Sequence record: NC_048203.1
Reading direction: 5' to 3' (one strand)
DNA: 64,000 nt
From: Escherichia phage vB_Eco_mar003J3
The notes below the pieces were generated by a model, which ran no database searches, was not told where the DNA came from, and saw only the letters and a list, made by a program, of their open reading frames with translations. Numbering within the stretch: position 1 is the first letter of the stretch; the number at the start of each line of letters is the position of its first letter. A program made the position numbers and the translations under genes. Below, in pieces: positions 44,049 through 60,852 of the stretch.

Positions 44049-45365
44049 TTATTTCCCACGGGAAATTGAGTAAATTCCATAACGCAGTGCGTCACAAAGG
44101 TGAGAGTTCGCATCATGACGTGGTTTTTCACGTGATAATTTCTCTTCACCTTCCTGGAAGTCCCACTTGTAGTTCGCTAAGGCGTGGATCAATGAGGTAC
44201 ATGAAGCATCTACGATGATCTTACCTTGCTGGAACAGTGCTTGCAGGCATGCCAAACCATCTAGGACGGATTTCTTAGCAGGAGCAGAAGCGATTTCATG
44301 TTCATAAGCTAAGTCCTGACGGAACTGAGCAGCGGCGGAGTCTACAAATATACGATCAACATTATAACGATCTATGCAGTGCTGGATATAAGCAGCGTGT
44401 TGGGCTGTAGTCTTTTCAGCCTGCTGATACTCTTCTAGTATGTAATAAACATCAGTATCATAGTGATACTTGATAGTAAGAACTGCTGTAGGGTCACGAT
44501 AACCAACGTCGATACCAAGTAATGTTTCGAAAGCCTCATCATCTTTAAAGAAGTGACGCATACCTTTGAGGTCTTTAACGTGCTCGATAGCATTGAAGGT
44601 ATCAAAGATCTGACCTTCGAATACGGAGAAGTCAGCCTCATATTCTTGACGGAAATAGTTTTTACTAACAGTACGACGCGCTTCTTCGATATCGTTCAGG
44701 TCAGCACGTGGGTTATCACGATATGTACCATGAATAGATACCCAATTAGGTAGCGTTTCGTTAAATCCTTTCTCATAGAACTCTTTGAACCAGTTACCCC
44801 CACGAGGAGTAGAGATAAATAGAGCTTTAGAGTTTGGCTTATCTAGGGTAGGACGTAACTGAATATCGAAAGCTGCACCACCAACGTCGGAAATCGCTGC
44901 TTCGTCAAAAATGATGAAGTCATATGAACGACCAACCGCGGAGTCAGCCTGCGCCGCGGAAGCCAGTTTAAAGAGTGAACCATTCGCTAATTCAATCTCT
45001 TTATCTTTGGCGTTCTCACGTTCAGTCTGTAATCCATACTTTTTAATAAGACCACGAATCTGTGACCAACCAATGTTAGCCAGTGAGTAGTTAGGTGCAA
45101 CTACTAGCACCTTCACATTGGGTTCCAGAAGTTTTAAGAACCCAAGTGTATATGCGATGAACGACTTACCTACACGACGTGATACACATGCAGTTACGAA
45201 ACGGTGTCTAGGATCTTCCAGCGCGTTAATAATTGCAACCTGAGGGGCGTTAGGCGTAATCCCCTCTTGAGCTAGAATGCTAGAGACTGGCAGACGGAAA
45301 AATCGTTTGTCAATACCAAAGTCAATAACATCTGTGGTGTTAATATAATCTCTAGAGACCTTCAT
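44049..45365 (-). CDS. terminase large subunit
   Basis: 438 aa; Walker A-like CVSRRVGKS, Walker B FIIFDEAA, C-terminal RNaseH-like nuclease region. Confidence 0.9.
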   Translation of the reverse strand: MKVSRDYINTTDVIDFGIDKRFFRLPVSSILAQEGITPNAPQVAIINALEDPRHRFVTACVSRRVGKSFIAYTLGFLKLLEPNVKVLVVAPNYSLANIGWSQIRGLIKKYGLQTERENAKDKEIELANGSLFKLASAAQADSAVGRSYDFIIFDEAAISDVGGAAFDIQLRPTLDKPNSKALFISTPRGGNWFKEFYEKGFNETLPNWVSIHGTYRDNPRADLNDIEEARRTVSKNYFRQEYEADFSVFEGQIFDTFNAIEHVKDLKGMRHFFKDDEAFETLLGIDVGYRDPTAVLTIKYHYDTDVYYILEEYQQAEKTTAQHAAYIQHCIDRYNVDRIFVDSAAAQFRQDLAYEHEIASAPAKKSVLDGLACLQALFQQGKIIVDASCTSLIHALANYKWDFQEGEEKLSREKPRHDANSHLCDALRYGIYSISRGK

Positions 45366-45847
45366 TATCTCTTACCTCCTCCTGCTAGAGCGGTAATAAG
45401 ATTCATATAGTTTTCGTCACCACTTCCAGCAATAATATTATTCTGAATGTTAGTCTGGTTAGCCGGAGTACGGGCTGCTGCCTTCACTTTCTCCAGTTCT
45501 ACCATCATTTTCATTTCTTCCATCTTCATCTTATGCGCCTTCCAGAGAATATCCATGATATCCTGGTCAGAACCCATGCCAGTTTCTTCGAGTTCTTCCA
45601 ACTTGCGCTTGATAACTTCATCAAGAACTCCGAATAAGCGGTCACGATTACGGAAGCCACTTTCCATAAAGATATCGTTGAGATAGTTTTTAACTTCCCC
45701 ACGATTCATTATATCACGGAATACAATCTCGGACATTCCAAGACTACGAGCGGCGGCAGGAACATCACTACCGCACTGTAAATAGGCTTCAATAACATCC
45801 ATGCCCTCAGGAGACATGAGATCGGGAACTAATACATCATTTGCCAT
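45365..45847 (-). CDS. terminase small subunit (putative)
   Basis: 160 aa immediately upstream of the large subunit gene, sharing one base with its start; N-terminal HTH-like region. Confidence 0.6.
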
Positions 45848-45857
45848 ATATCCTCCT

Positions 45858-47639: not shown

Positions 47640-47664
47640 ACAATCTCCTTCTTTAAAAATGTAT

Positions 47665-47693
47665 TTGCTTAGGTCCCTCTATTTTGCTATAAT
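47665..47693 (+). promoter_or_regulatory. T5-type sigma70 promoter driving llp
   Basis: TTGCTT-17 bp-TATAAT followed by ATATTTATAAATTAAACAGAGG. Confidence 0.65.
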
Positions 47694-47722
47694 ATATTTA
47701 TAAATTAAACAGAGGAACGATT

Positions 47723-47989: not shown

Positions 47990-48316
47990 TTAGTATAAAG
48001 TAAAAAGATCTCGAAGTAAACAAAAATTTTTATTTCTGGGATGAGGTACAGGTAGCAAACACAATGCAAGATGAAGAAAAGCCCTTTCAGGAACCTGTTA
48101 ACTTTGAAATAGATCCCAGGACTAAAGCAATACATGATGCGATTAACGAAATCATTCAAGACGTCATAGAAGATACAATATAAGACGTGATGGGAACATC
48201 CTTCTTACTAGAAGAATCCGGCTTCGACGAAGTAATGGATCTAATCGGGACAGTCGTAATGGTTCGTGCAATTGCTAGGGTATTCCAAATACCAAGACTA
48301 TAGGAGAAGCAAAGAG

Positions 48317-48451
48317 ATGTCAGACGACAACAGAAGAAAGAACAGACGCGGGGAAGTGTACGAAAGTTGGATAAATAGTTTCGGATTCGGAACTGTATTA
48401 TTCTTTATCTTTGTACTCTTTTGGTTAGCGGCTATGGCGGGGTGGTTATAA
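48317..48451 (+). CDS. small membrane protein (44 aa)
   Basis: ATG 48317 after AGGAGAAG; basic N-terminus then one hydrophobic helix. Confidence 0.4.
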   Translation: MSDDNRRKNRRGEVYESWINSFGFGTVLFFIFVLFWLAAMAGWL

Positions 48452-48555
48452 TGGAAGTAATAATTATTGCTTTACTAGTTGTGGTAATTATCGGGCAGTG
48501 CATTTTAGATAACCACTTAACTCGTATCGAACGTAAGCTGCGGGGAGACAAGTAA
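48451..48555 (+). CDS. small membrane protein (34 aa)
   Basis: MEVIIIALLVVVIIGQC...; TAATG overlaps with both neighbours; below the ORF-track size cut-off. Confidence 0.35.
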   Translation: MEVIIIALLVVVIIGQCILDNHLTRIERKLRGDK

Positions 48556-48773
48556 TGTTTAGTTTTGTAGCTATCTTCATTATTGGGGTACTTGCGGGAA
48601 TCTTCGGAACACTCGGGGCGATTAATAAGCATCGTGAATATATTGTGGGAGTATCGCGGGAGCTTTCGGAAAGGGAGCGGAGGTTTGCAGAAAAACGGGA
48701 GGAGTTCGAGCGAGAGTGGAGTGCTGGCTCAAGAAGCTCTCGTAGGAGATTTAAGATAGATGACAAATCATAA
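48555..48773 (+). CDS. small membrane protein (72 aa)
   Basis: N-terminal TM helix then charged Arg/Glu-rich tail. Confidence 0.45.
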   Translation: MFSFVAIFIIGVLAGIFGTLGAINKHREYIVGVSRELSERERRFAEKREEFEREWSAGSRSSRRRFKIDDKS

Positions 48774-49257
48774 GCCCTTACTTCCCTTAGAGGAATACCA
48801 GAGTAAGTTCGATTATGATCCAGAAACAGGTATATTTACTTGGAACTCGGGGAGTCGTAGAGGTAAACCAGCTGGCGGCCGTAATGACTCGGGCATTTCC
48901 CTTTCTATGGGCAGCAAAGGCAAGTATAAGGCCCACCGAGTGGCGTGGTTATACATGACAGGGGAAGATCCAGGAGATCTTCTAATAGATCATAAAGATC
49001 AAGACCCCTGGAACAATAAATGGAACAACTTACGAAAAGCTACGAATAAAGAAAATAGTAATAACTCTTCCGGATGGGAAAATAAATCCACAGGTGTAAA
49101 AGGGATATATAAGAGGACAGAAGGGAAGTTCGAGGCGAGAATACGTGCTAACGGGGAAAGAATCAACGTAGGTACATTTGGTAGCCTCGAGGAAGCTGAA
49201 AGTGCGATAAGGGAAGCACGTGAGAAAGTATGTGGTGAGTTCACAAACCACGGTTAA
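48760..49257 (+). CDS. HNH homing endonuclease with AP2-like domain
   Basis: Paralogue of ORF 7601..8131 (shared YDPETGIFTW / HKDQDPWNN motifs). Confidence 0.75.
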   Translation: MTNHKPLLPLEEYQSKFDYDPETGIFTWNSGSRRGKPAGGRNDSGISLSMGSKGKYKAHRVAWLYMTGEDPGDLLIDHKDQDPWNNKWNNLRKATNKENSNNSSGWENKSTGVKGIYKRTEGKFEARIRANGERINVGTFGSLEEAESAIREAREKVCGEFTNHG

Positions 49258-49374
49258 TAGCGCTAATTTGAAAATCTTGAAATTTCATAAGATTACACAT
49301 GCGGATGTGCTCAGTGGGACTGGAGATAGTTAGTAGTCTAATAATCCCCCTGTGTTACTATTACCATGCTAACT

Positions 49375-49413
49375 GTTTCATCCTGTAACCATTTTTTAAT
49401 TACAGGATGAAAC
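49375..49413. terminator. bidirectional hairpin between convergent genes
   Basis: Perfect 14-bp inverted repeat GTTTCATCCTGTAA ... TTACAGGATGAAAC with 11-nt loop; T-rich on + side. Confidence 0.6.
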
Positions 49414-49430
49414 TATTTTATTTTTAATTG

Positions 49431-50165
49431 TTAGGCAACTTTTAATTTATCAATGAATTGTTGCGGAGCGGTACTATAGTCTCCCCTTTCTTCCTCAGTC
49501 ATACCCTGCCAGCACATTTCTAAGCGCTGGCAAAGATATTGATAATCATTATCATCATCTAACGATTCATCAATAAAGGTTTCACCGATCAATGCTACGC
49601 CGATTGATAGGATATCGTTAACGGCTTGGGCGTCCAGTGTTTTGAATCCAGCACTTGCCGCCACCGATAATACGCCTTTATGATCATCAATCATCGTAAA
49701 ATCAGCGTTTGGATATAGCTGTTTAAATAGTTCAAAGTAATAGCTTTTGTATACAGCGTCTTTGCTGTGGTATATTTCGCTAACCTTATCCGCTTCAAAG
49801 TATTTGTGTAATGTATCGCGGGAGAATACGCGGATATTGCTATTTCCGCGCCCTCGCAAGCCTTGTTTACGCAAATAAAAGTAATCGCTTTTAGACATAA
49901 GGCGCGCGGTACAAATAACATTTAAAGTATTTGCATCATTCATACATTGGCGCATATATTCAACCAACGGCAATAAAGAATCCTGCATAATTAAATCATG
50001 TTTACAGGCTTCGCGGGAATACTTATTTAAATTTAAATTCCCGTTATCATCAAAGCAAGGCGCTACACGATGGAAAGAATTAATGATTGTGCCGTCCAGA
50101 TCCCAAATCATGACGCGGGAAATATGCGGGAAATTATGGGTAATATTCGTTTTAACTTGATTCAT
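49431..50165 (-). CDS. dmp: 5'-deoxyribonucleotidase (Dmp-like, HAD-type)
   Basis: 244 aa (the size I recall for T5 Dmp); WDLDGT HAD motif I. Confidence 0.8.
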   Translation of the reverse strand: MNQVKTNITHNFPHISRVMIWDLDGTIINSFHRVAPCFDDNGNLNLNKYSREACKHDLIMQDSLLPLVEYMRQCMNDANTLNVICTARLMSKSDYFYLRKQGLRGRGNSNIRVFSRDTLHKYFEADKVSEIYHSKDAVYKSYYFELFKQLYPNADFTMIDDHKGVLSVAASAGFKTLDAQAVNDILSIGVALIGETFIDESLDDDNDYQYLCQRLEMCWQGMTEEERGDYSTAPQQFIDKLKVA

Positions 50166-50245
50166 TTGTTACATTCTCCATTTAAGGGATCTAGGTTAAT
50201 TCAGCATTACCCGCTATTTATAAGCGGGTAATAATAAATTAACTA

Positions 50246-50638
50246 TTAAAGACCATACGCCAACGCATCAGCGATAAAACTAATATCCTCACCTGATACA
50301 CTGGAACGAATCCCCGCGCAAGTGTAGACCTTTGCAGACATAAGAGCATTATCAAGGCAAGCGGGGCATGGCGCGACAACTGCAAACGCTAGACCTGATT
50401 TTACAGCGTCAATAATAACAGTTTGCTCTTTTACGGTATCAATATAAACGCCTTTTGCTTTTGTATGGCTTGACGCTTTACCGGTAATGTATGCAAATGT
50501 TGTTACCTGTAGCGCCTCGTTAAAGTCTAGCAGTTCATCAATAATATGACCCGATTCAACGTGATAACGCTCGCCATTAGAATAAACTAGAACGATGGAA
50601 GAAGTAGCGTGATCAAAAGGAATGTTTTGGTTTTTCAT
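50246..50638 (-). CDS. hypothetical pre-early protein (130 aa)
   Basis: ORF between A1-like and dmp genes with GGAG RBS; contains PCPAC motif; function unknown. Confidence 0.55.
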   Translation of the reverse strand: MKNQNIPFDHATSSIVLVYSNGERYHVESGHIIDELLDFNEALQVTTFAYITGKASSHTKAKGVYIDTVKEQTVIIDAVKSGLAFAVVAPCPACLDNALMSAKVYTCAGIRSSVSGEDISFIADALAYGL

Positions 50639-50682
50639 GTTTAAAACTCCAGATTATTTAATTAACTTTTTCGGGAATATAA

Positions 50683-50700
50683 GCGGGGAATATTCCCCGC
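50683..50700. repeat. 18-bp perfect palindrome GCGGGGAATATTCCCCGC (copy 1)
   Basis: Lies in a 30-bp segment identical to 52705-52734; between the A1-like gene stop and the next gene. Confidence 0.9.
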
Positions 50701-50713
50701 TGATTAAATTTAA

Positions 50714-52378
50714 TTAGGCAAAGAATTTGCCATTTTTGAAATCAATCAAGGTACGTTGACCGTTTGCATATGTAATTAAATGCGTTTGCGTCCAGCTTGA
50801 CGCGCCAACGTTGTAACCCATATCGAGACTACCAGCAACGCCAGCGGTATAAACGCCGCCGTATATACTAGCCGTGTGAGTGTGGCCCGTGTTGAGGCGT
50901 CCTAACTTTTTAAACTGTTTAGGATTGCCCCGACTGCCGTTAATGCCGTTGTGACCATGTACACCGCATTCAATTCCTGCAATCTTGAAAGATTGGTCAG
51001 TAGTCAGGAAAATAGCGTTAAATTCGCAACCTGCAACGTTTCTAAGCGCATAATCCAATACGTTAAAGGTATCATCTTGTTTTGCAATAGCCGCATAAAT
51101 CGCAGCGTTTAGGCTGTGATACAGTTCGGCGTTTGCGGGGTCGTCTTTAATGTTAGCGTTACGATCATCAAGCCAACGGGATAACGCCAAATCATGATTG
51201 GATTCCACGATGATTGTTTGAGAAAAATCGCGCTCCATTGACTCCAACACGCGACCGGTATCAATGAGATCGTCAATAACTTTATCACGTCCGGCGGCGT
51301 ATTGTTTCGCAAGGAATACACCACTTGCGCGGTTGTGATGGTTACGCGATGTAAAATCATGCACATCATGAATAAACTGATATTTCGGTTTAAGAATATC
51401 AAGCAAGCTATTTTCGCCCACCCATGATGCAACGGCGCATTCATCATCTAATTTTTCGGCGTGAATATCGCCATATTGCAAGCCTAGAACATGATCGGAC
51501 GTTTCAAAACATCCGGTAGGCATAGCGCAAATATTCAAATCATAAAACATTCCGCTTTCATCCATTGTTTCAAGCTGGCGAACAAAAAATTCGCCGTCGT
51601 CGTCAAATTCTACCAACAAAGCGCCGTAATTATGCAGCGCCTCAGCTTTTTGACCTGCTTTCTGCTGAATATAGTTTTTAAGTGTAGCCGTTCCGGTGGA
51701 GTACATACGGCGCACTACTTCACCTTTTAACGCTGGCACACTTTCAGCGGTAATTTTAGCGTGACCAATTGCCAGACCTTCAATATTTAAAGCCGTGGCG
51801 GTTTCTGCGAATCCTGAAAGCGGATAGTCTGCCGTTGGTAACACGTTAATTTCAGCCATGAAAGCAAAACGGCGATTATTTAAAAATACGTTTTTCTCGC
51901 AAATATATTTATTAAATGCGGGATCGTATTTAATGCCTTCGTTACCTTCTCCATTCTGGAAGCCGTTTTTATTGTAAATGAATTTACTAACCAGCAATTC
52001 ACCGCCGATATATTCAGCGAATTGCTCAAGCACTTTCAAAAAGTTTTTATGTGGGAAAGTATTATTTTGAATCGACGTTAGAATAAAACGGCGACCGGAT
52101 TTAACTTCCCACTGTTCCACGGTACTAGAAACAATCCCCGCCGCTTCTGGGCGATCATCATTTTTAATCGCCTTTTCAGCTTTTGCCGCTTTCGGTTTCG
52201 CTGGCTTATTTGCTTCCAGCCAGTCACAAATTGCGGTCGAATGTTTCGGCGTGTCATAAACAGCTTTTGAAATATCGTCACAAACTTCCAATTTAGTAGC
52301 GCGTAAACGCTTGCCATAGAAATTAAAATCAGCGGCAAGTTTAGTGATCTGGGACTGTTTTTCTGCGGAAATATTCAT
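50714..52378 (-). CDS. A1: pre-early A1-like metallophosphoesterase
   Basis: 554 aa; calcineurin-like motifs GDIH, HDVHDF, ESNHD, GVHGHNG, GHTH; adjacent to dmp as in T5. Confidence 0.8.
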   Translation of the reverse strand: MNISAEKQSQITKLAADFNFYGKRLRATKLEVCDDISKAVYDTPKHSTAICDWLEANKPAKPKAAKAEKAIKNDDRPEAAGIVSSTVEQWEVKSGRRFILTSIQNNTFPHKNFLKVLEQFAEYIGGELLVSKFIYNKNGFQNGEGNEGIKYDPAFNKYICEKNVFLNNRRFAFMAEINVLPTADYPLSGFAETATALNIEGLAIGHAKITAESVPALKGEVVRRMYSTGTATLKNYIQQKAGQKAEALHNYGALLVEFDDDGEFFVRQLETMDESGMFYDLNICAMPTGCFETSDHVLGLQYGDIHAEKLDDECAVASWVGENSLLDILKPKYQFIHDVHDFTSRNHHNRASGVFLAKQYAAGRDKVIDDLIDTGRVLESMERDFSQTIIVESNHDLALSRWLDDRNANIKDDPANAELYHSLNAAIYAAIAKQDDTFNVLDYALRNVAGCEFNAIFLTTDQSFKIAGIECGVHGHNGINGSRGNPKQFKKLGRLNTGHTHTASIYGGVYTAGVAGSLDMGYNVGASSWTQTHLITYANGQRTLIDFKNGKFFA

Positions 52379-52476
52379 ATATTAATTAACTCCATTAAAG
52401 GGATTTAAAACATTTTAAAGCTGGCAATATTGCCAAATATAACGCCGTTTATTTACAGCGTTATAATTTGCAACAT

Positions 52477-52674
52477 TTAACTAATCGGCATTAGGCTAGA
52501 ACTTACACCAAGAGCAACGGCGGCAATAAAACAAATAAGACCTAAACTCTTTGCGAATTTAGATTTATGCTTAAAATAATATGAATCTAAATCATTTTGA
52601 AAATAAGCGAATAATAATGAGGCCGCCATAATAAACAAGCCTAGAATGAGGGATTCACTAGGAAAGAAGATCAT
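52477..52674 (-). CDS. small membrane protein (two predicted TM helices)
   Basis: ATG at 52674 (MIFFPSESLILGLFIMAASLL...); between A2-like and A1-like genes. Confidence 0.45.
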   Translation of the reverse strand: MIFFPSESLILGLFIMAASLLFAYFQNDLDSYYFKHKSKFAKSLGLICFIAAVALGVSSSLMPIS

Positions 52675-52704
52675 TTTAATAACTCCGGTCAAAGGGAAAT
52701 TATA

Positions 52705-52722
52705 GCGGGGAATATTCCCCGC
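52705..52722. repeat. 18-bp perfect palindrome GCGGGGAATATTCCCCGC (copy 2)
   Basis: Identical 30-bp context to copy 1; followed on - strand by TATAAT. Confidence 0.9.
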
Positions 52723-52731
52723 TGATTAAAT

Positions 52732-53166
52732 TTATTCGCCTGCGGCCTGTTTTACTTCATCGACAACGCCTAACAATTGCGCCATGGCTTCCAGCGTTTC
52801 CAGTTTTGCACTTTCCAAACTTGCCAGATCGTCGGCGTCTTTGATAATGCCTGAATCAATGGCGTGTTTAGCGATAACGCGCACATAGTGAGCTTTACGG
52901 ATTGAGCTACCGCCGCCAACTTTGCGCGGCTTGTCGCTTTTCTGGTAGGCTTTTGCACTGGTCAATTTAGAACGTACAGAGACAGGGGAAGCCGCGCCAA
53001 CGGCGGCGGCGATTTCTTTTAAGCCGTCACTGTTAGCAAATTCAACGCCATTTTTTTCGATCATTTCAGAATACAAAGAGACAGCTTTCTGCGTGTTTTC
53101 TTCATTCCAAGAGAATTTTGCGGCTTTTTCGGTTTTAACGTTAGACATAGTAAATACTCCGTTCAA
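52732..53166 (-). CDS. pre-early A2-like protein (putative)
   Basis: 144-aa ORF upstream of the A1-like gene, size close to the ~15 kDa I recall for T5 A2; assignment by synteny only. Confidence 0.45.
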   Translation of the reverse strand: MNGVFTMSNVKTEKAAKFSWNEENTQKAVSLYSEMIEKNGVEFANSDGLKEIAAAVGAASPVSVRSKLTSAKAYQKSDKPRKVGGGSSIRKAHYVRVIAKHAIDSGIIKDADDLASLESAKLETLEAMAQLLGVVDEVKQAAGE

Positions 53167-53247
53167 TTATTAATTAAGGGATTATGATTAACTAATGTTA
53201 ATCGTTATATTGCCCATATTTCAGGGCAATATAAAAGTAACACTAAT

Positions 53248-53499
53248 TTATGCTATGGCTTGCCATTTATCATCTTTCTGAATGACCTTTACAACGTCGC
53301 CAGATTTAACACGGACGGTATAAATCGGCTTGCCGTGGTTACTGCGTTCCGTTTCCGCGTAGACCGCTTCAATCTTATCAAAGGGATCAAGCGCCGCACC
53401 TTTAATACGTTCGGCTTTTCCGGTTAATTCATCCGTTTTAGTTACAAAAGGAATGAATACAGATTGACCTACTTTCGGCGCGGTAATAACGTTTTGCAT
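53248..53499 (-). CDS. hypothetical pre-early protein
   Basis: 83-aa ORF with GGAG RBS. Confidence 0.5.
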   Translation of the reverse strand: MQNVITAPKVGQSVFIPFVTKTDELTGKAERIKGAALDPFDKIEAVYAETERSNHGKPIYTVRVKSGDVVKVIQKDDKWQAIA

Positions 53500-53632
53500 T
53501 TTTAATACTCCGGTTTATTGGGGATTATTCCACAATAGCGCCTCGATACTTTGAAACGCTATTAGATTATAATCCGCTAGGAGTTAGCCTAAACATTACC
53601 GTTATCCAAATTGTTAAAGAGCAGTTACTACG

Positions 53633-53655
53633 GGGAACATCTTAAAACCTATCGG
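53633..53655. repeat. 23-bp inverted repeat, left arm
   Basis: GGGAACATCTTAAAACCTATCGG; reverse complement of 53907-53929 with one mismatch. Confidence 0.85.
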
Positions 53656-53663
53656 CTAGCGTG

Positions 53664-53873
53664 TCAAGCGTTTTTTAAACTTTTTTCGATTTGATGGGAG
53701 TTATATAAATCAATCATTATATTACGCCACACCATTTCCAGCCCTTGTTGCTTGCCTTTCTTGTATTGCTTGAATCTGTATTTTACAGATCGTTGCGCTA
53801 CTGTCAACAAATTTTTTGTTCTGCTATCAAGCGACTTGATAGGCTTGCCAGTGATCAAAAGCGTTTGTTTCAT
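53664..53873 (-). CDS. hypothetical small basic protein
   Basis: 69 aa, Lys/Arg-rich, RBS AAGGAA; ORF sits exactly between the two arms of the 23-bp inverted repeat. Confidence 0.45.
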   Translation of the reverse strand: MKQTLLITGKPIKSLDSRTKNLLTVAQRSVKYRFKQYKKGKQQGLEMVWRNIMIDLYNSHQIEKSLKNA

Positions 53874-53906
53874 ATCGTCGATTCCTTATAATATCTAAGT
53901 TTACCG

Positions 53907-53929
53907 CCGATAGGCTTTAAGATGTTCCC
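53907..53929. repeat. 23-bp inverted repeat, right arm
   Basis: CCGATAGGCTTTAAGATGTTCCC. Confidence 0.85.
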
Positions 53930-54028
53930 TAATTTTTAAAGAGCATGGCAGGGTTTTGAAAGGTCAAACAGACTGTCAATCGCTGTTATCCCCGCCGTGT
54001 AGTTCGTCATTGCCGCCCTACGTGATAA

Positions 54029-54057
54029 ATAATAGGAGAATACCGAGAAGGGCGCAA
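54029..54057 (-). promoter_or_regulatory. candidate sigma70 promoter for the - strand pre-early operon
   Basis: On - strand TTGCGC-17 bp-TATTAT about 150 nt upstream of ORF 53873; weak call. Confidence 0.3.
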
Positions 54058-54280
54058 GCGTATTTTTGTAAAGAAACGTAAAGAAAACCACTACTCGCAA
54101 ACGTCCAGCGGCGCATTAAATTTAATGAAACGGGCGCGCGAATAACACCAAAACAACCATTTTAGCAAGTAATTTTTTCATTTATATCTGCTCTAGGGTA
54201 CTTGACAAAATCTAAAATCCTCGTGGTGAGGTTTTCTCGGTGTACCCCTTATGATTGCCTATCTTTTCCTTTGAGGCGCT

Positions 54281-54307
54281 TAGAATGCGTTACAGAGCGT
54301 TTTAGAC
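54281..54307. repeat. 27-bp direct repeat, copy 1
   Basis: TTAGAATGCGTTACAGAGCGTTTTAGA, identical at 57704-57730. Confidence 0.85.
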
Positions 54308-54521
54308 CCTGTTAATAACTTATACAAAAAGCAAAAATGAAATTTAATGAGTTATCCACTTGATTTTTCAAAAAAGTATTTTCTGCTGTTATTTTTCATT
54401 GACAAATAAGTCTGGACGTGTATCAGATCGTTAGCAGACTAATAATCGCTAGGATGATAATCACGCTGGTGGATTGTAACGGCTGAAATCATTAGCAGAC
54501 TATTAATCAAGGAAAATCCTA

Positions 54522-54552
54522 TTAGCCAACTAACTATTTCATAATATATAAT
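54522..54552 (+). promoter_or_regulatory. T5-type promoter (weak -35)
   Basis: TATAAT followed by ATACATATAAATTAATGAGAAAT conserved downstream box; about 430 nt upstream of ORF 54982. Confidence 0.45.
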
Positions 54553-54636
54553 ATACATATAAATTAATGAGAAATAATAAATATGAGAAACTATCGGGCT
54601 AAGTGAGAACCACTATCATTTAACTTATACCCAAAG

Positions 54637-54645
54637 TTATCCACA
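54637..54645 (+). promoter_or_regulatory. DnaA box (TTATCCACA)
   Basis: Exact match to the consensus 9-mer. Confidence 0.5.
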
Positions 54646-54685
54646 GCACAAAATAACTTGACGCAATAGGCGACGTTTTGGCGAC

Positions 54686-54694
54686 TTATCCACA
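54686..54694 (+). promoter_or_regulatory. DnaA box (TTATCCACA)
   Basis: Exact match to the consensus 9-mer; part of inverted repeat A. Confidence 0.5.
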
Positions 54695-54714
54695 GACTTA
54701 TATACAGGTTATCC

Positions 54715-54734
54715 TACTGTATAAATATACAGGG
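54715..54734. promoter_or_regulatory. LexA/SOS-box-like palindrome
   Basis: TACTGTATAAATATACAGGG fits CTGT-N8-ACAG; part of inverted repeat A. Confidence 0.4.
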
Positions 54735-54981
54735 TAGAATGGTAGCAGTAACAACCGCAATCAAATTTAAGCGGCCTAGAACGCGCTACACGGCGTTTTC
54801 TCACTGCTGCCCTTATTATAATAAAGCCTTGTGTACACTTACAGAGTGCTAGAAATAGAAAACGCGCGGATATCATAAAAACAGGCAGTAAGCAAGGAAT
54901 AAAAAACCTTTTCTTTTTCCTTGCCCCTAGCGAACAAATATCTATATCATTCACTCACCGATTAACGAGGGAGACAAAGAA

Positions 54982-56007
54982 ATGTCTACTGTAAGAATTG
55001 CAGTACCAGCAAACGCCACTATTATTAAGGGTAGTTTGCGCAACCTGCTAGACGGATCAAGTCTAGCAAGCCTACAGCTAGACGGATCAAGTCTAGCAAG
55101 CCTACAACATACGGCGGCAATGGTTGAAAAGATTCACGATGAAATTTTAGATAATAATGATACTCATTATTGTTTAAGTGATTTCACACAATTACTAGAC
55201 CCTACCCGCGTTCTAGTGCTTTACAACCGTGACTATCACATCATGCGAAATCAGCGGGGAAGAGATATTGATTTTATCATTGTAGGTCACGACGAAAAAA
55301 GCTATATTGCCCGTGGTTACAATGTACAAGAAAAAGAAATGGTTTTCGCTACTCGCGTAAATGGTATTAATTCCAGCGATGTAGAAGATTTACTATCTAG
55401 TATTTGTGGCGAATTGACAAGCGCCATTAAACGTGCTGATAGTTACGCAATCGAAACAACTGGCGTATTGTGTTTTGGACGCGCTAGAGGTAACATGTTG
55501 ATCCCTAACGATTATTTAGAGTATGGGAATGAATCAAACGTTGCAAACGCTGGATTTACACTTTTACCGCTTGACAATGTAACAAAACAGGCTGTACAAT
55601 CTCAAACTTCAAGCGCAAATGCGCAAACTACTGAAAATAAAGGAAATATTATGTCTAAAGTATCTTCTATCGTTGCTGCTAATAAATCCGCCGTTGTAAA
55701 CGCTGCTAAACTGGAAGTGGGTAAAATTGCACTGACTCAAGTCACAAAAGTAGCGGCGAAAAAAGCACCGTTTATGATTAAAGGGTATATTGATACGCCG
55801 ATTGGTCGTGTAGTGATCGCTAACCTGCTGAGTGTAGCGGTTGACCAGTACGCCCCGACTAATGCGAAAGCTAAAGCGGTAGCAGGCGCGGCAATGGAAG
55901 CGGCAATGTTGGAAATGGTACAAAGTTTCAATATTGCTGAAATGATCGATGAAATGGTAAAAGGTATTGACATTTCAACCTTTACCCAAAATGCTGAAAG
56001 CGAGTAA
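54982..56007 (+). CDS. hypothetical protein (341 aa) with internal 10-aa tandem duplication
   Basis: RBS GAGGGAG; N-terminal LDGSSLASLQ x2; possible internal start MSKVSSIV after AAAGGAAA. Confidence 0.6.
   Translation: MSTVRIAVPANATIIKGSLRNLLDGSSLASLQLDGSSLASLQHTAAMVEKIHDEILDNNDTHYCLSDFTQLLDPTRVLVLYNRDYHIMRNQRGRDIDFIIVGHDEKSYIARGYNVQEKEMVFATRVNGINSSDVEDLLSSICGELTSAIKRADSYAIETTGVLCFGRARGNMLIPNDYLEYGNESNVANAGFTLLPLDNVTKQAVQSQTSSANAQTTENKGNIMSKVSSIVAANKSAVVNAAKLEVGKIALTQVTKVAAKKAPFMIKGYIDTPIGRVVIANLLSVAVDQYAPTNAKAKAVAGAAMEAAMLEMVQSFNIAEMIDEMVKGIDISTFTQNAESE
55048..55107. repeat. 30-bp tandem duplication, two copies
   Basis: CTAGACGGATCAAGTCTAGCAAGCCTACAG / ...ACAA, one mismatch. Confidence 0.9.
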
Positions 56008-56035
56008 TAATTAGTCTAATGTAAAGTTTTGTAAA

Positions 56036-56061
56036 GGTCGCCCTAATCGGCGGCCTTTTTT
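56036..56061 (+). terminator. rho-independent terminator
   Basis: GGTCGCC-CTAATC-GGCGGCC hairpin followed by TTTTTT. Confidence 0.65.
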
Positions 56062-56125
56062 GTTATAATGCCTTTACACCGAAACGGTGGATTGAAAATT
56101 TTCCCCGATTTCTAGGAGGCGTTAA

Positions 56126-56353
56126 ATGGTACATTCATCATCTTCTGCAATTTTTAATGGTATGGAATGGGTATCCGTTCCCACTATTGTAAGCGTTATG
56201 GTTTCGGAGTTTGGGATTGGTAAAACTTATGTTACCATTCAGGAGCTTTACGACAATGACAAGATTGATCAGCAAACAGCCGGATTTTTGCTGGATGAAT
56301 TGAAAGCTAACCACTGCACCAAAAAGCAAGCGGCAAAAATTGTTTTAATGTAA
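56126..56353 (+). CDS. hypothetical protein (75 aa)
   Basis: RBS TAGGAGG. Confidence 0.5.
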   Translation: MVHSSSSAIFNGMEWVSVPTIVSVMVSEFGIGKTYVTIQELYDNDKIDQQTAGFLLDELKANHCTKKQAAKIVLM

Positions 56354-56360
56354 TTAATAA

Positions 56361-56388
56361 CGGGGCGTTACTTTCGCCCCTAATTTCT
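56361..56388 (+). terminator. hairpin / partial terminator
   Basis: GGGGCG-TTACTTT-CGCCCC followed by TAATTTCT. Confidence 0.5.
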
Positions 56389-56401
56389 AGGAGCTAATAA
56401 A

Positions 56402-56551
56402 ATGGTTATTTTTCGATCAGTTCTAGCAGGTATCTTGGGCGCTATTTTATCGTTGTTTGCAATAGCTTTCGGTGTTCATGCCGTTATTATCGGCGCGGGT
56501 ATCGCGGGGTTTTCTTACCTGTTAGGCTGTATGACTGGTAAAGGGGGATAA
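56402..56551 (+). CDS. small membrane protein (49 aa, two predicted TM helices)
   Basis: RBS TAGGAGCTAATAAAATG; hydrophobic Gly/Ala-rich sequence; below ORF-track cut-off. Confidence 0.45.
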   Translation: MVIFRSVLAGILGAILSLFAIAFGVHAVIIGAGIAGFSYLLGCMTGKGG

Positions 56552-56553
56552 AA

Positions 56554-56766
56554 ATGTTAAAAAATGTAAGCCTTGCCCGTTCTAAAGGTTTTAAGCTGGT
56601 GGATGTTAACACGTTCGAGCGTCCAGATTGTAAAATCGAATATGTAGCACGCAACAAAAACGCGTTTCGTGTTACAGAAAAGAAATTTGACAAGCGCGGC
56701 AATTTGGTAGCCGAAACGGTTAAACACTTTGCCACCTTTTACGCTGCGTTTCGGGGAGTGTTATAA
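56554..56766 (+). CDS. hypothetical protein (70 aa)
   Basis: RBS AAGGGGGA; tightly packed operon. Confidence 0.5.
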   Translation: MLKNVSLARSKGFKLVDVNTFERPDCKIEYVARNKNAFRVTEKKFDKRGNLVAETVKHFATFYAAFRGVL

Positions 56767-56767
56767 A

Positions 56768-57112
56768 ATGGTAATTTACGAGGGCAACCGATTTGTAACT
56801 AATTGCCGTCCGGCATTATTAGCAAACTATTTAAATCAGCTTTCACCAGTTTATAAAGGCGTGGTTAATATCTATGAGGGCAAAGCACATTATAAAATTT
56901 CTGCCGTTGTCGCCCGTGAACTAGCGTTTCAATTTTTAACTTTTGGGTCTTGTGACGTTCAGGTTATGGGGGAAGCGTTAATAGCGGAAAATGAAAATGA
57001 ATTTATTGACATTTTCCGCAAAGTATGTACAGAGCGCCTGATTATGAAAGGCGCGTATATTCAATCAACCGCTGAAAGTATCGAAACAGCGTTTCGAAAG
57101 GTGGCGCAATGA
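56768..57112 (+). CDS. hypothetical protein (114 aa)
   Basis: ATG 56768 with GGGAG RBS; inside ORF-track frame 56729..57112. Confidence 0.5.
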   Translation: MVIYEGNRFVTNCRPALLANYLNQLSPVYKGVVNIYEGKAHYKISAVVARELAFQFLTFGSCDVQVMGEALIAENENEFIDIFRKVCTERLIMKGAYIQSTAESIETAFRKVAQ

Positions 57113-57294
57113 CTAGAAATGAAGCTGTTAAAGCTATGTTAGAAGGTAAAAAAGTAACTCATCGTTATTTTTCCATGCATGAATATTTATTCATGAAATA
57201 TGAAGTGATCACCACGGAGGATGGTTATAAATTTAATCATGAATTTTATAGCCGTGAAATGTTTAATGATGGCTGGCAGCTTTATTATGAATAG
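57109..57294 (+). CDS. hypothetical protein (61 aa)
   Basis: ATGA overlap with upstream gene; RBS AAGGTGG. Confidence 0.45.
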   Translation: MTRNEAVKAMLEGKKVTHRYFSMHEYLFMKYEVITTEDGYKFNHEFYSREMFNDGWQLYYE

Positions 57295-57420
57295 CTGGTG
57301 GCGAAAAACACAAAGCCATAAATCTAATAATACCGCTGGGAAACATTCCCAGCGTTTACGATTTGGTAATGGCTTCACAATGATATTGATAATCATTCTC
57401 ATTCTAGGAGCAATGGCGTT

Positions 57421-57615
57421 ATGAGTGATAAAATTGTTGTAACTAAAACTACTGTTACCGTTGATACTTTCTTTGTGCCTGATACGCTGGAAAATCGGCA
57501 AGCGGTGGAGCGTGGCGATTATGATAAAGTGATTTATGATAACGATGGTTACTATCAACATTTGGTAGACTCCTACGGCGAAAGCGAAAAGATCACACAT
57601 CGACTACCAGACTAA
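57421..57615 (+). CDS. hypothetical protein (64 aa)
   Basis: RBS AGGAG; followed by terminator. Confidence 0.5.
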   Translation: MSDKIVVTKTTVTVDTFFVPDTLENRQAVERGDYDKVIYDNDGYYQHLVDSYGESEKITHRLPD

Positions 57616-57621
57616 TAATAA

Positions 57622-57650
57622 CGGGGCGCAACTATCGGCCCCGTCTTTTC
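57622..57650 (+). terminator. rho-independent terminator
   Basis: CGGGGC-loop-GCCCCG hairpin followed by TCTTTTCT. Confidence 0.7.
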
Positions 57651-57703
57651 TGGCCTTCCTCAAATTTCCCCTTATTAAAATACCTCCGCCAAAAATAAAC
57701 GCG

Positions 57704-57730
57704 TTAGAATGCGTTACAGAGCGTTTTAGA
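57704..57730. repeat. 27-bp direct repeat, copy 2
   Basis: Identical to 54281-54307. Confidence 0.85.
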
Positions 57731-57760
57731 GCTATATTAGAGTTATTCACTACGCAGGAA

Positions 57761-57780
57761 TACTGTATAAATATACAGTA
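57761..57780. promoter_or_regulatory. LexA/SOS-box-like palindrome
   Basis: TACTGTATAAATATACAGTA: one mismatch from the idealised SOS box TACTGTATATATATACAGTA. Confidence 0.45.
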
Positions 57781-57788
57781 GAATAACC

Positions 57789-57809
57789 TGTTGATAAGTC
57801 TGTTGATAA
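57789..57809 (-). promoter_or_regulatory. two DnaA-box-like 9-mers (TTATCAACA)
   Basis: TGTTGATAA at 57789-57797 and 57801-57809; one mismatch from TTATCCACA. Confidence 0.35.
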
Positions 57810-57861
57810 CGCCCCAAAATCGCTAGGATTTTGTCAAGTCAAATCGTGCTGTTAATAAACC

Positions 57862-57870
57862 TGTGGATAA
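57862..57870 (-). promoter_or_regulatory. DnaA box (TTATCCACA on - strand)
   Basis: TGTGGATAA, exact consensus. Confidence 0.5.
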
Positions 57871-57902
57871 CTTAAATAACAGTGTTTCTCACTTCGCTTT
57901 GT

Positions 57903-58044
57903 AAATGCGAGTCATTCTCATTATCATTAGCGTTTCCCTTCCTAAATGCAAATCATTCTCATTCGTATTCCGGTAGTCAAATGATAACTGTTCTCATTCG
58001 CATTCAACTTCTCAAATGCGAATCATTCTCATTATCATTCGCAT
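57903..58044. repeat. four direct repeats of AAATGCGAATCATTCTCATTatCATT-like unit
   Basis: Copies begin at 57903, 57944, 57979, 58013 (period ~35-41 bp). Confidence 0.8.
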
Positions 58045-58053
58045 TTCGGCAGG

Positions 58054-58076
58054 CAGGGCAATTTGCCCTGCGCTTT
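58054..58076 (+). terminator. palindrome plus T-run (terminator-like)
   Basis: CAGGGCA-ATT-TGCCCTG followed by CGCTTTTG. Confidence 0.45.
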
Positions 58077-58077
58077 T

Positions 58078-58677
58078 GTGCAAATCCGACATTTGCCCCC
58101 ACGGATTACGTGCCAGTGTGCATGTGCGAATCCGACAATTTTTGGTAGTGTGCAAATCCGATGGGAAATATTTTTTATATGTGCGAATCCGACAATGAAT
58201 TTTCCTAAAAACTCCAGCAATCCGCAACTGCGATGCAATCCAGCTGGATTTACTAGAATATGTGCAAAACCGACAAGTGTTAAGGTGTGCGAATCCGACA
58301 AGATTTTTGTGACTTCGATTGGAGGGTGTGTGATTGTGTGGGTTTGGGGAGAAGTGCGAATCCGATGAGATTTTGGGAGGAACTACGGAAGGAGCAGCGG
58401 TGATGGTGCTTTAGCACCGATTTGCTGCATTTTTGGGGATAATGCGGGATGTTTTGGCTAGAATTGAGATTAGTGGAGATAAAGCGAAATTTTATTAGCA
58501 AAATGGGGCAAAATCGCTTGACAAGTGAAAATTCCTGTGGCTCTAAAAACTCAGGCAATCATGGGCCTTCGGCCCGAAATAATGCTGCTATTTTCAGTGT
58601 TCCTAAAAACTTTGGAGACTCCTATCAATGTGCAAATCCGACCATAAATTTCTAGAAACATAATGTGCAAATCCGAT
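58078..58677. repeat. iteron-like array: nine copies of (T)GTGCRAATCCGAYA
   Basis: Copies at 58078, 58124, 58150, 58181, 58262, 58287, 58354, 58630, 58665, all same orientation, irregular spacing. Confidence 0.85.
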
Positions 58678-58721
58678 AGCAATTTCCAGAAATGTGTTTT
58701 GGAAAAATGTCTCCTAGAAAT

Positions 58722-58793
58722 AACCGCCCTCCCTATAACCGCCCTGTATAGGAAACCGCCCTAGGATATGTAACGTTGGAGAGAAACTGCCCT
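58722..58793. repeat. four direct copies of AAC(C/T)GCCCT
   Basis: At 58722, 58737, 58754, 58785 with 15-31 bp spacing. Confidence 0.7.
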
Positions 58794-59210
58794 AGAATGC
58801 GTGAGAAACAGATTTAAAGTTTAGTGTAAACTCTAGAGTTAATGCTCAACTATTCCTAGAAACTTAGGAGTCTACTAGAAAGTGTTGTGCCATCCTAGCA
58901 GATGAGCGGCAACCGGTGTATCATCTTGAACACAAATATTGCCTTTAAATATTATAAGGTAAATAAAAGTTAATATACCCCCATTTCATGAGAGTTAGCC
59001 CCTCTAGGCGCGTGCGATTTGATACATCCTCCTGAGTCTCGGGGAGGAAGAACAATTGACGAGAACCTGCAAGCAGAACCGTCATCAAGTATTTTCCTAC
59101 GAGGAATGATGTAAATCTACGGCCTAGAGGTAAAAACAAGTTGATGTTTTTAATCTATGAGATTATTATAACATGCAGCTCAAATAATGTCAAGAAGATT
59201 TTGCTAACGT

Positions 59211-59936
59211 TTATAGATCGTGATTGACTTTGAGTATGACTCCCTTCGATGCCATGAAAAGGAATGTTGCTAGGTAAGATGACTCGGAATTTAGCGCAGA
59301 ATAATCTACACTTCCTCTAGGTCTAGTTTCTTGTTTAGTGTCAAGAATTGTTTCGATATCAAACTTAACAGATCTTGCAACTTTTCTAGCTTGTTCAGGA
59401 TCACGTAAGATTTCAAAGTGAGCAGCATCTAGAATATGGTTAGATGATGTTGATTCGTCAACTATACTTAGATGAACCTGCGCAAGTGTAGATACGATTC
59501 CTAGCTTTAATTCAGATAGAGAAGAATATGGTGGTTCTACTTTCTTTGTAAGTCTAGGGAGATGATCGTATTTACATTGCTTTTGAGGAATCATCAGAAT
59601 ATTAGGATAACATTCTAAACATGACTTTGCATTTCCTTCTTTAAAATGCGGGAGTTCTTTATCTGCAAAGACGTGGAATGAATCTGCTGAAAATCCTTTA
59701 ATAGTAGGATCAACAGTTTGAATCAGACGACGTAAACTAATATATGAAGGAGCTAATGTGACTTCTTCTGCATCTTTATTATATTTAGGTTGCCCACTAG
59801 CATTAATATATGCTGGATAAAACTCTGCACAAAATGCTACTGCATGAGCTTCTAACTCATTAAGTTCGGAAACATTCTTTCCATTACAAGCTCTAGCTAA
59901 CTTAATAATCTCTGCTAAATTCTTTTTTATACTCAT
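59211..59936 (-). CDS. hypothetical early protein (241 aa)
   Basis: Long ORF, first of a tightly packed - strand operon. Confidence 0.6.
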   Translation of the reverse strand: MSIKKNLAEIIKLARACNGKNVSELNELEAHAVAFCAEFYPAYINASGQPKYNKDAEEVTLAPSYISLRRLIQTVDPTIKGFSADSFHVFADKELPHFKEGNAKSCLECYPNILMIPQKQCKYDHLPRLTKKVEPPYSSLSELKLGIVSTLAQVHLSIVDESTSSNHILDAAHFEILRDPEQARKVARSVKFDIETILDTKQETRPRGSVDYSALNSESSYLATFLFMASKGVILKVNHDL

Positions 59937-60241
59937 ATATAATCATCCGGTTTTGTTTTAGTTTTTGTTACTGATTTCACTGAAGGATCTAACTTAATCC
60001 ACGTAAACCCTAGCTGCTCAGATAAGTGAGATATATTTCTAGGTGTTATTTTTATATTTGGAGGTAACTTAAATACTAGGTCTTTAAGTAACTTCATATC
60101 ATCTGAACCAATGAAGAGAATATACTGCATATCTTCTTTTTGTTCATATTCGTTTTCAGATAATGTACTAACTCCGACTGTATGTTTATTGAGTGTGGCC
60201 ACCTTACAGCGGCCTACAGTAAACTGAGTAATTATATCCAT
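59933..60241 (-). CDS. hypothetical protein (102 aa)
   Basis: 4-bp overlap with downstream gene. Confidence 0.5.
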   Translation of the reverse strand: MDIITQFTVGRCKVATLNKHTVGVSTLSENEYEQKEDMQYILFIGSDDMKLLKDLVFKLPPNIKITPRNISHLSEQLGFTWIKLDPSVKSVTKTKTKPDDYI

Positions 60242-60852
60242 TAACGACCTCTAGCCTTATCTGCATCAATAGCTTCGAATACTTTCGTTAACATTTCTTC
60301 AAGCTCACCTTCTTTGCTAGGATTGCTCAAACGAATAGTATATGAGTTCCTAGAAACTCCTGAGTCTTCTTGTGCTCCGCGATCTTTTGCAAAGCCCATC
60401 ATTGCAACGCCAGCTTTATTCCACTCGTCTACGCTAGATGCTTCCCCAAATTTATATGATTGCGTATTGCTTACCACGCCACCACAAGGAACATTGTGCA
60501 TATCCGACATTAATCTTTTATCAGAATTATTCAGCATTGCGATTGGCCCTGACTGCCACGGATCCCGAATAGTCACTGGAGTACTAGGGCGATTCACCTC
60601 AGTCTTCACGAGTTTGTATCCAGCATCGATTAGTGCATTAATCAGATTATCAGCCGGGATACGAGCCGTGCCAAAGATAGCACGAGCATTCATAAGCTTA
60701 GCCTGAAATTCCTTGCAACCTTGAAGATCAGTGTGCAAAAACGACAGTTGCATAGATTTAAACTGTACTGTAGCAGTCAGATCTTTAAAGCTGTAATCCC
60801 ATGTGTCGAGTTCATGATCTGCAACTACTTTAATGGTTTGTTGTGTAAACAT
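60241..60852 (-). CDS. hypothetical protein (203 aa)
   Basis: Long ORF in operon context. Confidence 0.6.
   Translation of the reverse strand: MFTQQTIKVVADHELDTWDYSFKDLTATVQFKSMQLSFLHTDLQGCKEFQAKLMNARAIFGTARIPADNLINALIDAGYKLVKTEVNRPSTPVTIRDPWQSGPIAMLNNSDKRLMSDMHNVPCGGVVSNTQSYKFGEASSVDEWNKAGVAMMGFAKDRGAQEDSGVSRNSYTIRLSNPSKEGELEEMLTKVFEAIDADKARGR

Follow-up and report, generated by a model that had tools for sequence, protein, structure and literature searches.

In the DNA stretch analyzed here (the window, 64 kb in its full length), late genes adjoin genes of the T5 pre-early type, which are followed by early genes, and this arrangement raises the question of how the long direct terminal repeat of a T5-like phage is represented and where its ends would lie. 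Genes occur in the order terL, terS, receptor-binding protein (RBP), llp, small membrane ORFs, HNH endonuclease, dmp, A1 and A2; an injection-stop repeat region comes next, followed by homologues of the first early genes of T5.

Late, pre-early and early genes are homologues of T5 genes

Every element listed in the original prediction (late genes, llp, dmp, A1-like and A2-like genes, a repeat-rich region and early genes) is present, each being confirmed by homology and not by eye. The gap between llp and dmp, which had been put within 1.5 kb, is 1442 bp. The following genes were identified.

44049-45365, minus strand: terminase large subunit, late gene (T5.155/T5.156 region match)
45365-45847, minus strand: terminase small subunit, late gene (T5.155/T5.156 region match)
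45858-47639, minus strand: RBP, receptor-binding tail protein of the pb5 class (phrog_4815, E 1e-280)
47723-47989, plus strand: llp, Cor-type lipoprotein, superinfection exclusion (phrog_1119, E 1e-23; T5 llp position)
48266-48451, plus strand: T5.159-like small membrane ORF in unique right-end DNA (80% amino-acid identity)
48555-48773, plus strand: T5.162-like small membrane ORF in unique right-end DNA (61% amino-acid identity)
48760-49257, plus strand: HNH-AP2 homing-type endonuclease, outside the predicted repeat (PF13392, E 2.6e-14; phrog_99)
49431-50165, minus strand: dmp, deoxynucleoside-5′-monophosphatase (88.5% amino-acid identity to T5 dmp)
50714-52378, minus strand: A1, DNA transfer protein (89.4% amino-acid identity to T5 A1; phrog_1745, E 1e-242)
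52732-53166, minus strand: A2, DNA-binding protein (87% amino-acid identity to T5 A2; phrog_1725)
54982..57615, plus strand: rightward pre-early operon, T5.012-, T5.014-, T5.015- and T5.017-like ORFs after the DUF7566 gene
54982-56007, plus strand: DUF7566 protein, first of the rightward operon (PF24450, E 3.5e-130)
59211..60852, minus strand: first early genes, unique left region (blastn to T5 12134-12610)
59211-59936, minus strand: gene in the T5.018 position (weak similarity)
60241-60852, minus strand: T5.019-like gene (71.5% amino-acid identity to T5.019)

These genes are unambiguously T5 homologues. The terminase genes (44049..45847) share 85% nucleotide identity with T5 106570-108443 (T5.155 and T5.156), and the RBP is only 29% identical to T5 pb5. 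The small membrane ORFs (48266..48773) match phrog_8596 and phrog_6447. The HNH-AP2 gene, in which the AP2 match is sub-threshold, sits between the T5.162-like ORF and a conserved junction block; it has no counterpart in T5 and TrudiRoth and is present in S114. The left end of the repeat holds dmp, A1 and A2 in the T5-type order, each encoded on the minus strand. A terminator hairpin of dmp is located at 49375-49413, and the homology of A2 to T5 A2 begins at residue 7. The rightward pre-early operon shows 53-93% amino-acid identity to its T5 counterparts, and in saus132, Seafire and EscoHU1 the same early genes come after the left repeat.

The best nucleotide matches to the window come from Salmonella and E. 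coli phages of the genus Epseptimavirus (90-94% identity). Collinearity and high identity, in place of whole-genome identity, indicate membership in the Demerecviridae, Markadamsvirinae (Epseptimavirus-like). No record identical to the window was found in the collection, and because the best matches are only ~94% identical, the window is, judged by its sequence, a distinct isolate.

One repeat copy carries both T5 junctions

The window is very probably a section of a T5-like (Demerecviridae, Epseptimavirus-like) genome sequence in which the long direct terminal repeat is present just once. As originally proposed, it spans a single collapsed T5-type repeat between late and early genes, with collinearity to T5 through both junctions. 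In T5 (NC_005859), the left and right repeats occupy 1-10219 and 111532-121750. Window 1-49307 is collinear with T5 61708-111531 (1-43919 aligning with 61708-105768), and 49308-58543 corresponds collinearly to the repeat of T5, whose copies 1-10219 and 111532-121750 are equal; from 58544 on, the alignment runs into T5 10220 and beyond. The alignment of window 49260-50662 with T5 111484-112889 crosses the start of the right repeat at 111532 unbroken, and that of window 57639-58930 with T5 9287-10608 likewise crosses the end of the left repeat at 10219. On either side of the single copy lies the homologue of a T5 junction, that of unique right region and right repeat on its left and that of left repeat and unique left region on its right. 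Because one copy carries both, the late-repeat-early order requires a sequence with one repeat copy, that is, a collapsed assembly or, equivalently, the junction of an intracellular circle or concatemer. None of the repeat sequence occurs a second time elsewhere in the 64-kb window. The two copies in the virion would have been merged to give a circularly permuted sequence of late genes, repeat and early genes.

The adjacency of late and pre-early genes, on which the original prediction had relied, is present but not decisive, because it is normal at the right end of the true T5 genome. What is diagnostic is that the repeat copy preceded by late genes is also followed by early genes. Unrelated contigs wrongly joined into a chimera could also produce the adjacency, and Davison mentions that dmp, A1 and A2 are misplaced in some T5-like GenBank entries. 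Here, however, both junctions of the window follow the true T5 junctions base for base, more than 100 independent records show these adjacencies as well, and neither foreign sequence nor a breakpoint is visible, which leaves a misjoin with a negligible probability.

Another explanation is that the sequence is not an assembly artefact but was read from a replicative form existing in the cell (a circle or concatemer junction), in which genome units are naturally separated by one repeat copy. Circles visualized in the electron microscope amount to the T5 genome minus one repeat (Davison), and such a form would be identical in sequence to the window. This origin is nevertheless unlikely, given that virion DNA is almost always the source for phage genome sequencing and that short-read collapse of identical 9-kb repeats is a routine cause, seen in the records of most relatives; T5 repeats are mishandled by assemblers (Davison). 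The replicative form and assembly collapse yield the same sequence and reflect the same underlying genome.

The late-repeat-early arrangement recurs in many GenBank relatives; in 110 records, a single place covers 80% or more of window 47000-59500. A repeat-internal query matched 630 places in 528 records, and thus most records hold one repeat copy. In Epseptimavirus records such as those of S114 (MH370367) and Escherichia phage TrudiRoth (MZ501109), late genes, one repeat copy and early genes likewise follow each other, and the nucleotide identity to window 47000-59500 is 93% over 86-88%. Salmonella phage S114, deposited as circular in the same order as the window, also carries the HNH-AP2 gene at the corresponding site, and its annotation includes an injection-stop-like region. 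A collapsed single repeat is a common, already described outcome of assembling such genomes, and our result is nothing biologically new on T5-like phages. In T7-like genomes, identical short terminal repeats (160-230 bp versus 9-10 kb in the T5 type) merge in assembly, and concatemers hold one copy, which is duplicated by packaging.

The T5 repeat and that of the window share the order dmp, T5.002, A1, T5.005, A2, T5.007, T5.008, followed by the divergent promoter and repeat regions, T5.011-017 and the injection stop region. They are 79-82% identical in nucleotide sequence, with conservation of both boundary sequences, of the nick-consensus sequence and of all nine DRD repeats, of which two lie past the repeat end. 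The repeat of the window is shorter (~9.24 kb versus 10.2 kb) and lacks T5.003 as well as hegG, an HNH gene located inside the T5 repeat. Unlike in T5, an HNH-AP2 gene lies a short way outside the left boundary of the window's repeat, which is written as a single copy.

Repeat ends are placed by homology to relatives

The original prediction stated that the repeat boundaries cannot be located. This was too pessimistic, as relatives with annotated or read-derived termini place them within a few bases.

49309..58543, plus strand: long direct terminal repeat as predicted from homology, in one copy (first-step-transfer and pre-early region), ~9235 bp (~9.24 kb)

The repeat is predicted to end at 49308/49309 and ~58543, giving a length of ~9.24 kb. 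At the left end, the T5 terminus maps to 49308 and those of BF23, Seafire, EscoHU1, Stitch, vB_SenS-3 and SIA3lw map to 49309, an agreement of seven relatives within 1 nt. The right ends of T5, BF23 and EscoHU1 map to 58543, and those of SIA3lw (58542), vB_SenS-3 (58547) and Stitch (58548) differ by a few nt, so that six relatives agree within 6 nt. Among these termini, both BF23 ends and the Seafire left end are read-derived (PhageTerm); several of the agreeing annotations may be copied from T5 and not independently determined, and a homology-based boundary depends on the choice of trusted annotations. BF23 (OR083247), a Tequintavirus, is more distantly related, and its record carries an annotated left terminal repeat; BF23 position 1 maps to 49309 and the end of its 9743-bp PhageTerm repeat to 58543. 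We rejected the idea that this repeat ends at a nick like that of Seafire, since its end maps exactly to the T5-homologous terminus.

The span originally given for the region, 47990-58800, was only approximate, starting ~1.3 kb too far left and ending ~250 bp too far right. With the boundary placed by homology, 47990-49307 is unique right-end DNA and not repeat, and this ~1.3 kb holds the T5.159- and T5.162-like membrane ORFs and the HNH-AP2 endonuclease.

The annotations of some relatives deviate: the boundaries of the saus132 family map to 49423 and 58334 (annotated repeat of saus132, 1-8717), the Seafire right end maps to 58072 (annotated repeat, 1-9592), and those of IME260 map ~20 nt further out. 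Since Seafire and saus132 are close relatives, the termini could lie at positions not homologous to those of T5, either at 58072 as in Seafire or at boundaries of the saus132 type, or a long repeat could be absent. We consider this highly unlikely. The BF23 PhageTerm ends agree exactly with the T5 ends, the window retains both T5-type boundary blocks with strong conservation (42/49 and 106/110 positions identical), and the saus132 boundaries fall at positions without special conservation. The Seafire PhageTerm right end (58072) is probably a nick pile-up, because it is located 1 nt from the site homologous to the T5 major nick.

58053..58074, minus strand: palindrome GCAGGGCAATTTGCCCTGC, then a site homologous to that of the T5 major 7.9% nick (Pu/GCGC, between 58074 and 58073)

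T5 9748/9749 maps to window 58073/58074, where the sequence of the putative nick site is conserved (GCCCTGCGC/TTTTG at 58073/74); the consensus 5′-NPu pGCGCN-3′ was taken from the note in the T5 record. A nick appears to have been taken for the repeat end in one deposited relative, and read-end pile-ups in T5-like phages can mark the conserved 7.9% nick instead of a true end. T5-type repeat ends are transferable by homology to within a few bases. For annotation, a linear genome should be reported that starts at window ~49309 and has a ~9.24-kb direct terminal repeat, and the virion genome size would be the assembled length plus ~9.2 kb.

Conserved blocks are located at both boundaries

49259..49307, no strand assigned: left boundary block, 49 bp, directly outside the repeat (AGCGCTAATT...CATAAGATTACACATG...), candidate terminus-generating signal
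58486..58554, no strand assigned: right boundary block, ending at the repeat boundary (...GCTTGACAAGTGAAAATTCCTGTGGCTC/TAAAAACTCAG), candidate terminus-generating signal

The left block is identical to T5 at 42 of 49 positions directly outside the boundary, compared with 26 of 47 directly inside. Window 49260-49307 matches the T5 unique sequence just before the right repeat, and many relatives match window 49258-49317 only. At the right boundary, 106 of 110 positions (58487-58596) are identical to T5, compared with ~79.5% in the surrounding region; the right block contains a promoter-like TTGACA-N17 core, and a GGGCC-TTCG-GGCCC hairpin comes after the block. In Klebsiella phage IME260 the left block is partly conserved and the right block conserved, and both are conserved from T5 to one Klebsiella Sugarlandvirus. 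We tentatively suggest that the blocks might be cis signals where the T5-type terminase or accessory nucleases make the genome ends and duplicate the repeat, although this role is rather doubtful. By analogy with T5, packaging would restore two copies by cuts at both boundaries, each at a locally conserved block. A limited literature search gave no description of signals of this kind for T5, and searches for a defined T5 terminase cleavage site gave nothing relevant.

The pentamer CTCAG, which lies close to both boundaries of the window's repeat (on the inner side of the left and the outer side of the right), was dismissed as chance; it is not conserved at the T5 left end. An Rfam scan of 47000-60000 at E ≤ 0.1 gave no match, a tRNA scan of the whole window found none, and a promoter scan was uninformative overall (39 sites versus 32.6 expected).

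The presumed injection stop region has a T5-type layout

54598..54732, no strand assigned: IRC-spacer-IRD inverted repeat (Repeat Region 2 of Davison), 135-nt arm, 75% complementary to 57763-57897
57763..57897, no strand assigned: IRD′-spacer-IRC′ inverted repeat, core of the presumed injection stop signal
58077..58677, plus strand: DRD repeats (TGTGCRAATCCGAY) in nine copies, of which those at 58629 and 58664 fall beyond the predicted repeat and the other seven within it

A repeat-rich non-coding region spans ~57620-58870, and as in the T5 type, this large untranslated region at the right end contains an inverted repeat (with a partner at 54598-54732), paired boxes and DRD repeats. The IRC-spacer-IRD arm is homologous to T5 6098-6237 and carries TTATCCACA DnaA boxes at 54637 and 54686. 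IRD′-spacer-IRC′ contains two DnaA/DnaA* box pairs (57789-57809 and 57850-57870) with the boxes 3 bp apart; over both arms, box pairs are found at 57789/57801, 57850/57862 and 54686/54698. The same IRD′-spacer-IRC′ layout has been described for all T5-like phages (Davison, 10.1101/866236), and we follow the inverted-repeat nomenclature of that study. Strict DnaA boxes (TTWTNCACA) are not enriched across the whole window (7 found versus 7.2 expected), and the one notable feature is that they are placed in pairs within the two inverted-repeat arms.

By analogy with T5, virion DNA would carry the repeat segment at both ends, of which the window shows one consensus copy, and the left copy would enter the cell first. 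Transfer would pause at the injection stop region (57.76-58.4 kb), composed of IRD′-spacer-IRC′, paired DnaA boxes, and DRE and DRD repeats; dmp, A1 and A2 would then be expressed, and A1 and A2 would let the remaining DNA enter. Intracellular circles or concatemers would hold one repeat copy per genome unit, which is the arrangement in the window.

The DRD repeats are arranged in the same way in T5, where Repeat Region 3 runs ~270 bp past the repeat end (Davison, 10.1101/866236).

A single terminal repeat lies between the late and early genes

Window 47000-59500 matched 551 phage records with identity up to ~94%, and in 110 of these a single stretch spans at least 80% of it. This region and the sequence around it resemble T5-like phages of Salmonella and E. 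coli (Demerecviridae, mostly Epseptimavirus). T5 (NC_005859) 61708-105768 is collinear with window 1-43919, from replication genes through tail and head genes, and the T5 terminase genes align with window 44001-45874. No tRNA genes were found in the whole window. The original prediction described late genes adjoining pre-early genes, followed by early genes; ORF listing and family searches showed this to be correct and bore out each gene that it named.

Features around the repeat (identities to T5; aa unless stated)
44049-45847, minus: terL/terS, 85% nt
45858-47639, minus: receptor-binding protein (phrog_4815), 29% to pb5
47723-47989, plus: llp/Cor lipoprotein (phrog_1119)
48266-48773, plus: T5.159- and T5.162-like membrane ORFs, 80% and 61%
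48760-49257, plus: HNH-AP2 endonuclease (PF13392), absent from T5
49431-50165, minus: dmp, 88.5%
50246-50638, minus: T5.002-like, 82%
50714-52378, minus: A1, 89.4%
52477-52692, minus: T5.005-like, 88%
52732-53166, minus: A2, 87%
53248-53499, minus: T5.007-like (DUF7177), 79.5%
53664-53873, minus: T5.008-like, 77%
about 53.9-54.98 kb: non-coding promoter and repeat region
54982-57615, plus: rightward operon (DUF7566; T5.012-, 014-, 015-, 017-like), 53-93%
about 57620-58870: non-coding repeat region
from 59211, minus: gene in T5.018 position, weak similarity; T5.019-like gene, 71.5%

In T5 itself the right terminal repeat directly follows the late region (pb5, llp and four small ORFs), so late genes adjoining dmp are normal at the T5 right end. 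The telling feature is not this adjacency but the presence of early genes after the same repeat copy. By local blastn, T5 111484-112889 aligns with window 49260-50662 across the right-repeat start (111532), and T5 9287-10608 aligns with window 57639-58930 across the left-repeat end (10219); thus, one repeat copy is flanked by both kinds of T5 junction. No second repeat-like sequence was found elsewhere in the window. Only a sequence that has the repeat once can show the late-repeat-early order: either an assembly that is collapsed and circularly permuted or, amounting to the same, an intracellular circle or concatemer junction. Intracellular circles correspond to the genome minus one repeat (Davison).

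This single-copy state is already known. Many T5-like sequences in GenBank are mis-ordered, as assemblers cannot handle large terminal repeats (Davison). A repeat-internal query hit 630 places in 528 records, indicating one copy in most deposits, and S114 was deposited as circular with the same late-repeat-early order. By analogy with T5, virion DNA would carry the repeat at both ends, and the left copy would be injected first until transfer halts temporarily at the injection stop region. Dmp, A1, A2 and the other pre-early products would then act, A1 and A2 allowing the remaining transfer. Replication would yield circular or concatemeric DNA in which every unit has a single repeat, and packaging would regenerate the duplication.

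Annotated ends of relatives place the repeat boundaries

The repeat boundaries had been considered impossible to locate from this sequence, but homology to the annotated ends of relatives does place them.

Repeat ends of relatives mapped onto the window (left; right; basis)
T5: 49308; 58543; record annotation
BF23: 49309; 58543; PhageTerm
Seafire: 49309; 58072 (outlier); PhageTerm
EscoHU1: 49309; 58543; record annotation
Stitch: 49309; 58548; record annotation
vB_SenS-3: 49309; 58547; record annotation
SIA3lw: 49309; 58542; record annotation

The collapsed records EH1, EH7 and JLBYU43 start within a few bases of the left-end position. The repeat is predicted to span 49309-58543 (~9235 bp), with the left end at ...GCGGATGT|GCTCAGTGGG... 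and the right end at ...CCTGTGGCTC|TAAAAACTCAGG... The repeat thus falls inside the span originally proposed, 47990-58800, but 47990-49307 is unique right-end DNA by the mapped left end.

Both boundaries coincide with conserved blocks. The 49 bp just outside the left boundary (49259-49307) are identical to T5 at 42 positions, as against 26 of the 47 bp just inside, and with a 173-nt query at this boundary many relatives match window 49258-49317 only. The right boundary ends a block identical to T5 at 106 of 110 positions, in surroundings averaging ~79.5%, and this block is recognisable in the distant Klebsiella phage IME260, both of whose annotated ends lie ~20 nt further out. We infer that both blocks could plausibly act as signals in forming the ends. 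A GGGCC-TTCG-GGCCC stem-loop (58563-58575), 20 bp past the predicted right end, is followed by no T-tract; every member of the Markadamsvirinae in the comparison has it unchanged, and its IME260 counterpart differs.

The Seafire repeat end (MK050846.2 position 9592) falls 471 bp short of the terminus common to T5 and BF23. The annotated T5 major single-strand interruption at 9748/9749 (7.9%) maps to window 58073/74, 1 nt from the Seafire end. This end therefore probably reflects reads piling up at a nick, taken in error for a terminus. The nick consensus is 5′-NPu pGCGCN-3′ (T5 record), and the homologous window site, GCCCTGCGC|TTTTG, directly follows a 19-nt palindrome. Six near-identical food-isolate phages (saus132, chee130_1 and others) carry annotated repeats (1-8717 in saus132, NC_047884) that map to window 49423-58334; compared with T5 and BF23, the left boundary is displaced by ~115 bp and the right one by ~210 bp. 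These ends fall at unremarkable sequence, so the annotations of this group may be imprecise. The use of the boundaries placed by homology, and of the warning about the nick, is confined to annotation.

The T5 major nick annotated in D13 (78573/78574) has its homologous site kept at ~16553, with a minus-strand consensus (TTTCCCCGCGC|CCAC) in a context resembling the repeat nick site TTTGCCCTGCGC|TTTT.

The repeat-rich region resembles that of T5

The repeat-rich region agrees with Repeat Regions 2 and 3 as described by Davison (10.1101/866236). The arms of a 135-nt inverted repeat (54598-54732 and 57763-57897) enclose the rightward operon. DnaA or DnaA-like boxes occur as pairs 3 bp apart (57789/57801, 57850/57862 and 54686/54698); strict boxes are not enriched across the whole window, and the boxes are notable in arrangement only. 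DRE-like repeats occupy 57886-58047. The DRD repeat (TGTGCRAATCCGAY) occurs nine times within 58077-58677, and, as in T5, the final two copies are past the terminal-repeat end.

Further DRD-like motifs (TGTGCAAATCCKAC) are found away from this region, all on the plus strand: a tandem pair at 16920-16948 inside the D13 (SbcC-like) gene and a copy at 60495-60508 in the T5.019-like gene. About 0.4 such matches are expected by chance. The corresponding places in T5 (78935/78950 and 12153) carry these motifs too. The DUF7566 pre-early gene contains a perfect 30-bp tandem duplication (55047-55106, plus), repeating the peptide LDGSSLASLQ. The first early gene is closely followed, on its downstream side, by a perfect consensus sigma-70 promoter (59193-59165, minus; TTGACA, 17-nt spacer, TG, TATAAT) directed leftward, toward the repeat end.

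A possible module swap and an endonuclease insertion left of the repeat

The receptor-binding protein is only 29% identical to T5 pb5 and llp has no significant similarity to T5 llp, while the genes flanking 45858-47989 are 80-90% identical. This interval resembles a receptor and exclusion module that has been exchanged, which would imply a receptor other than FhuA. The HNH-AP2 homing-type endonuclease gene, which begins before the T5.162-like ORF ends, is a mobile insertion directly beside the genome end. The gene ends 1 bp short of the conserved left-junction block; S114 has it, and T5 and TrudiRoth do not.
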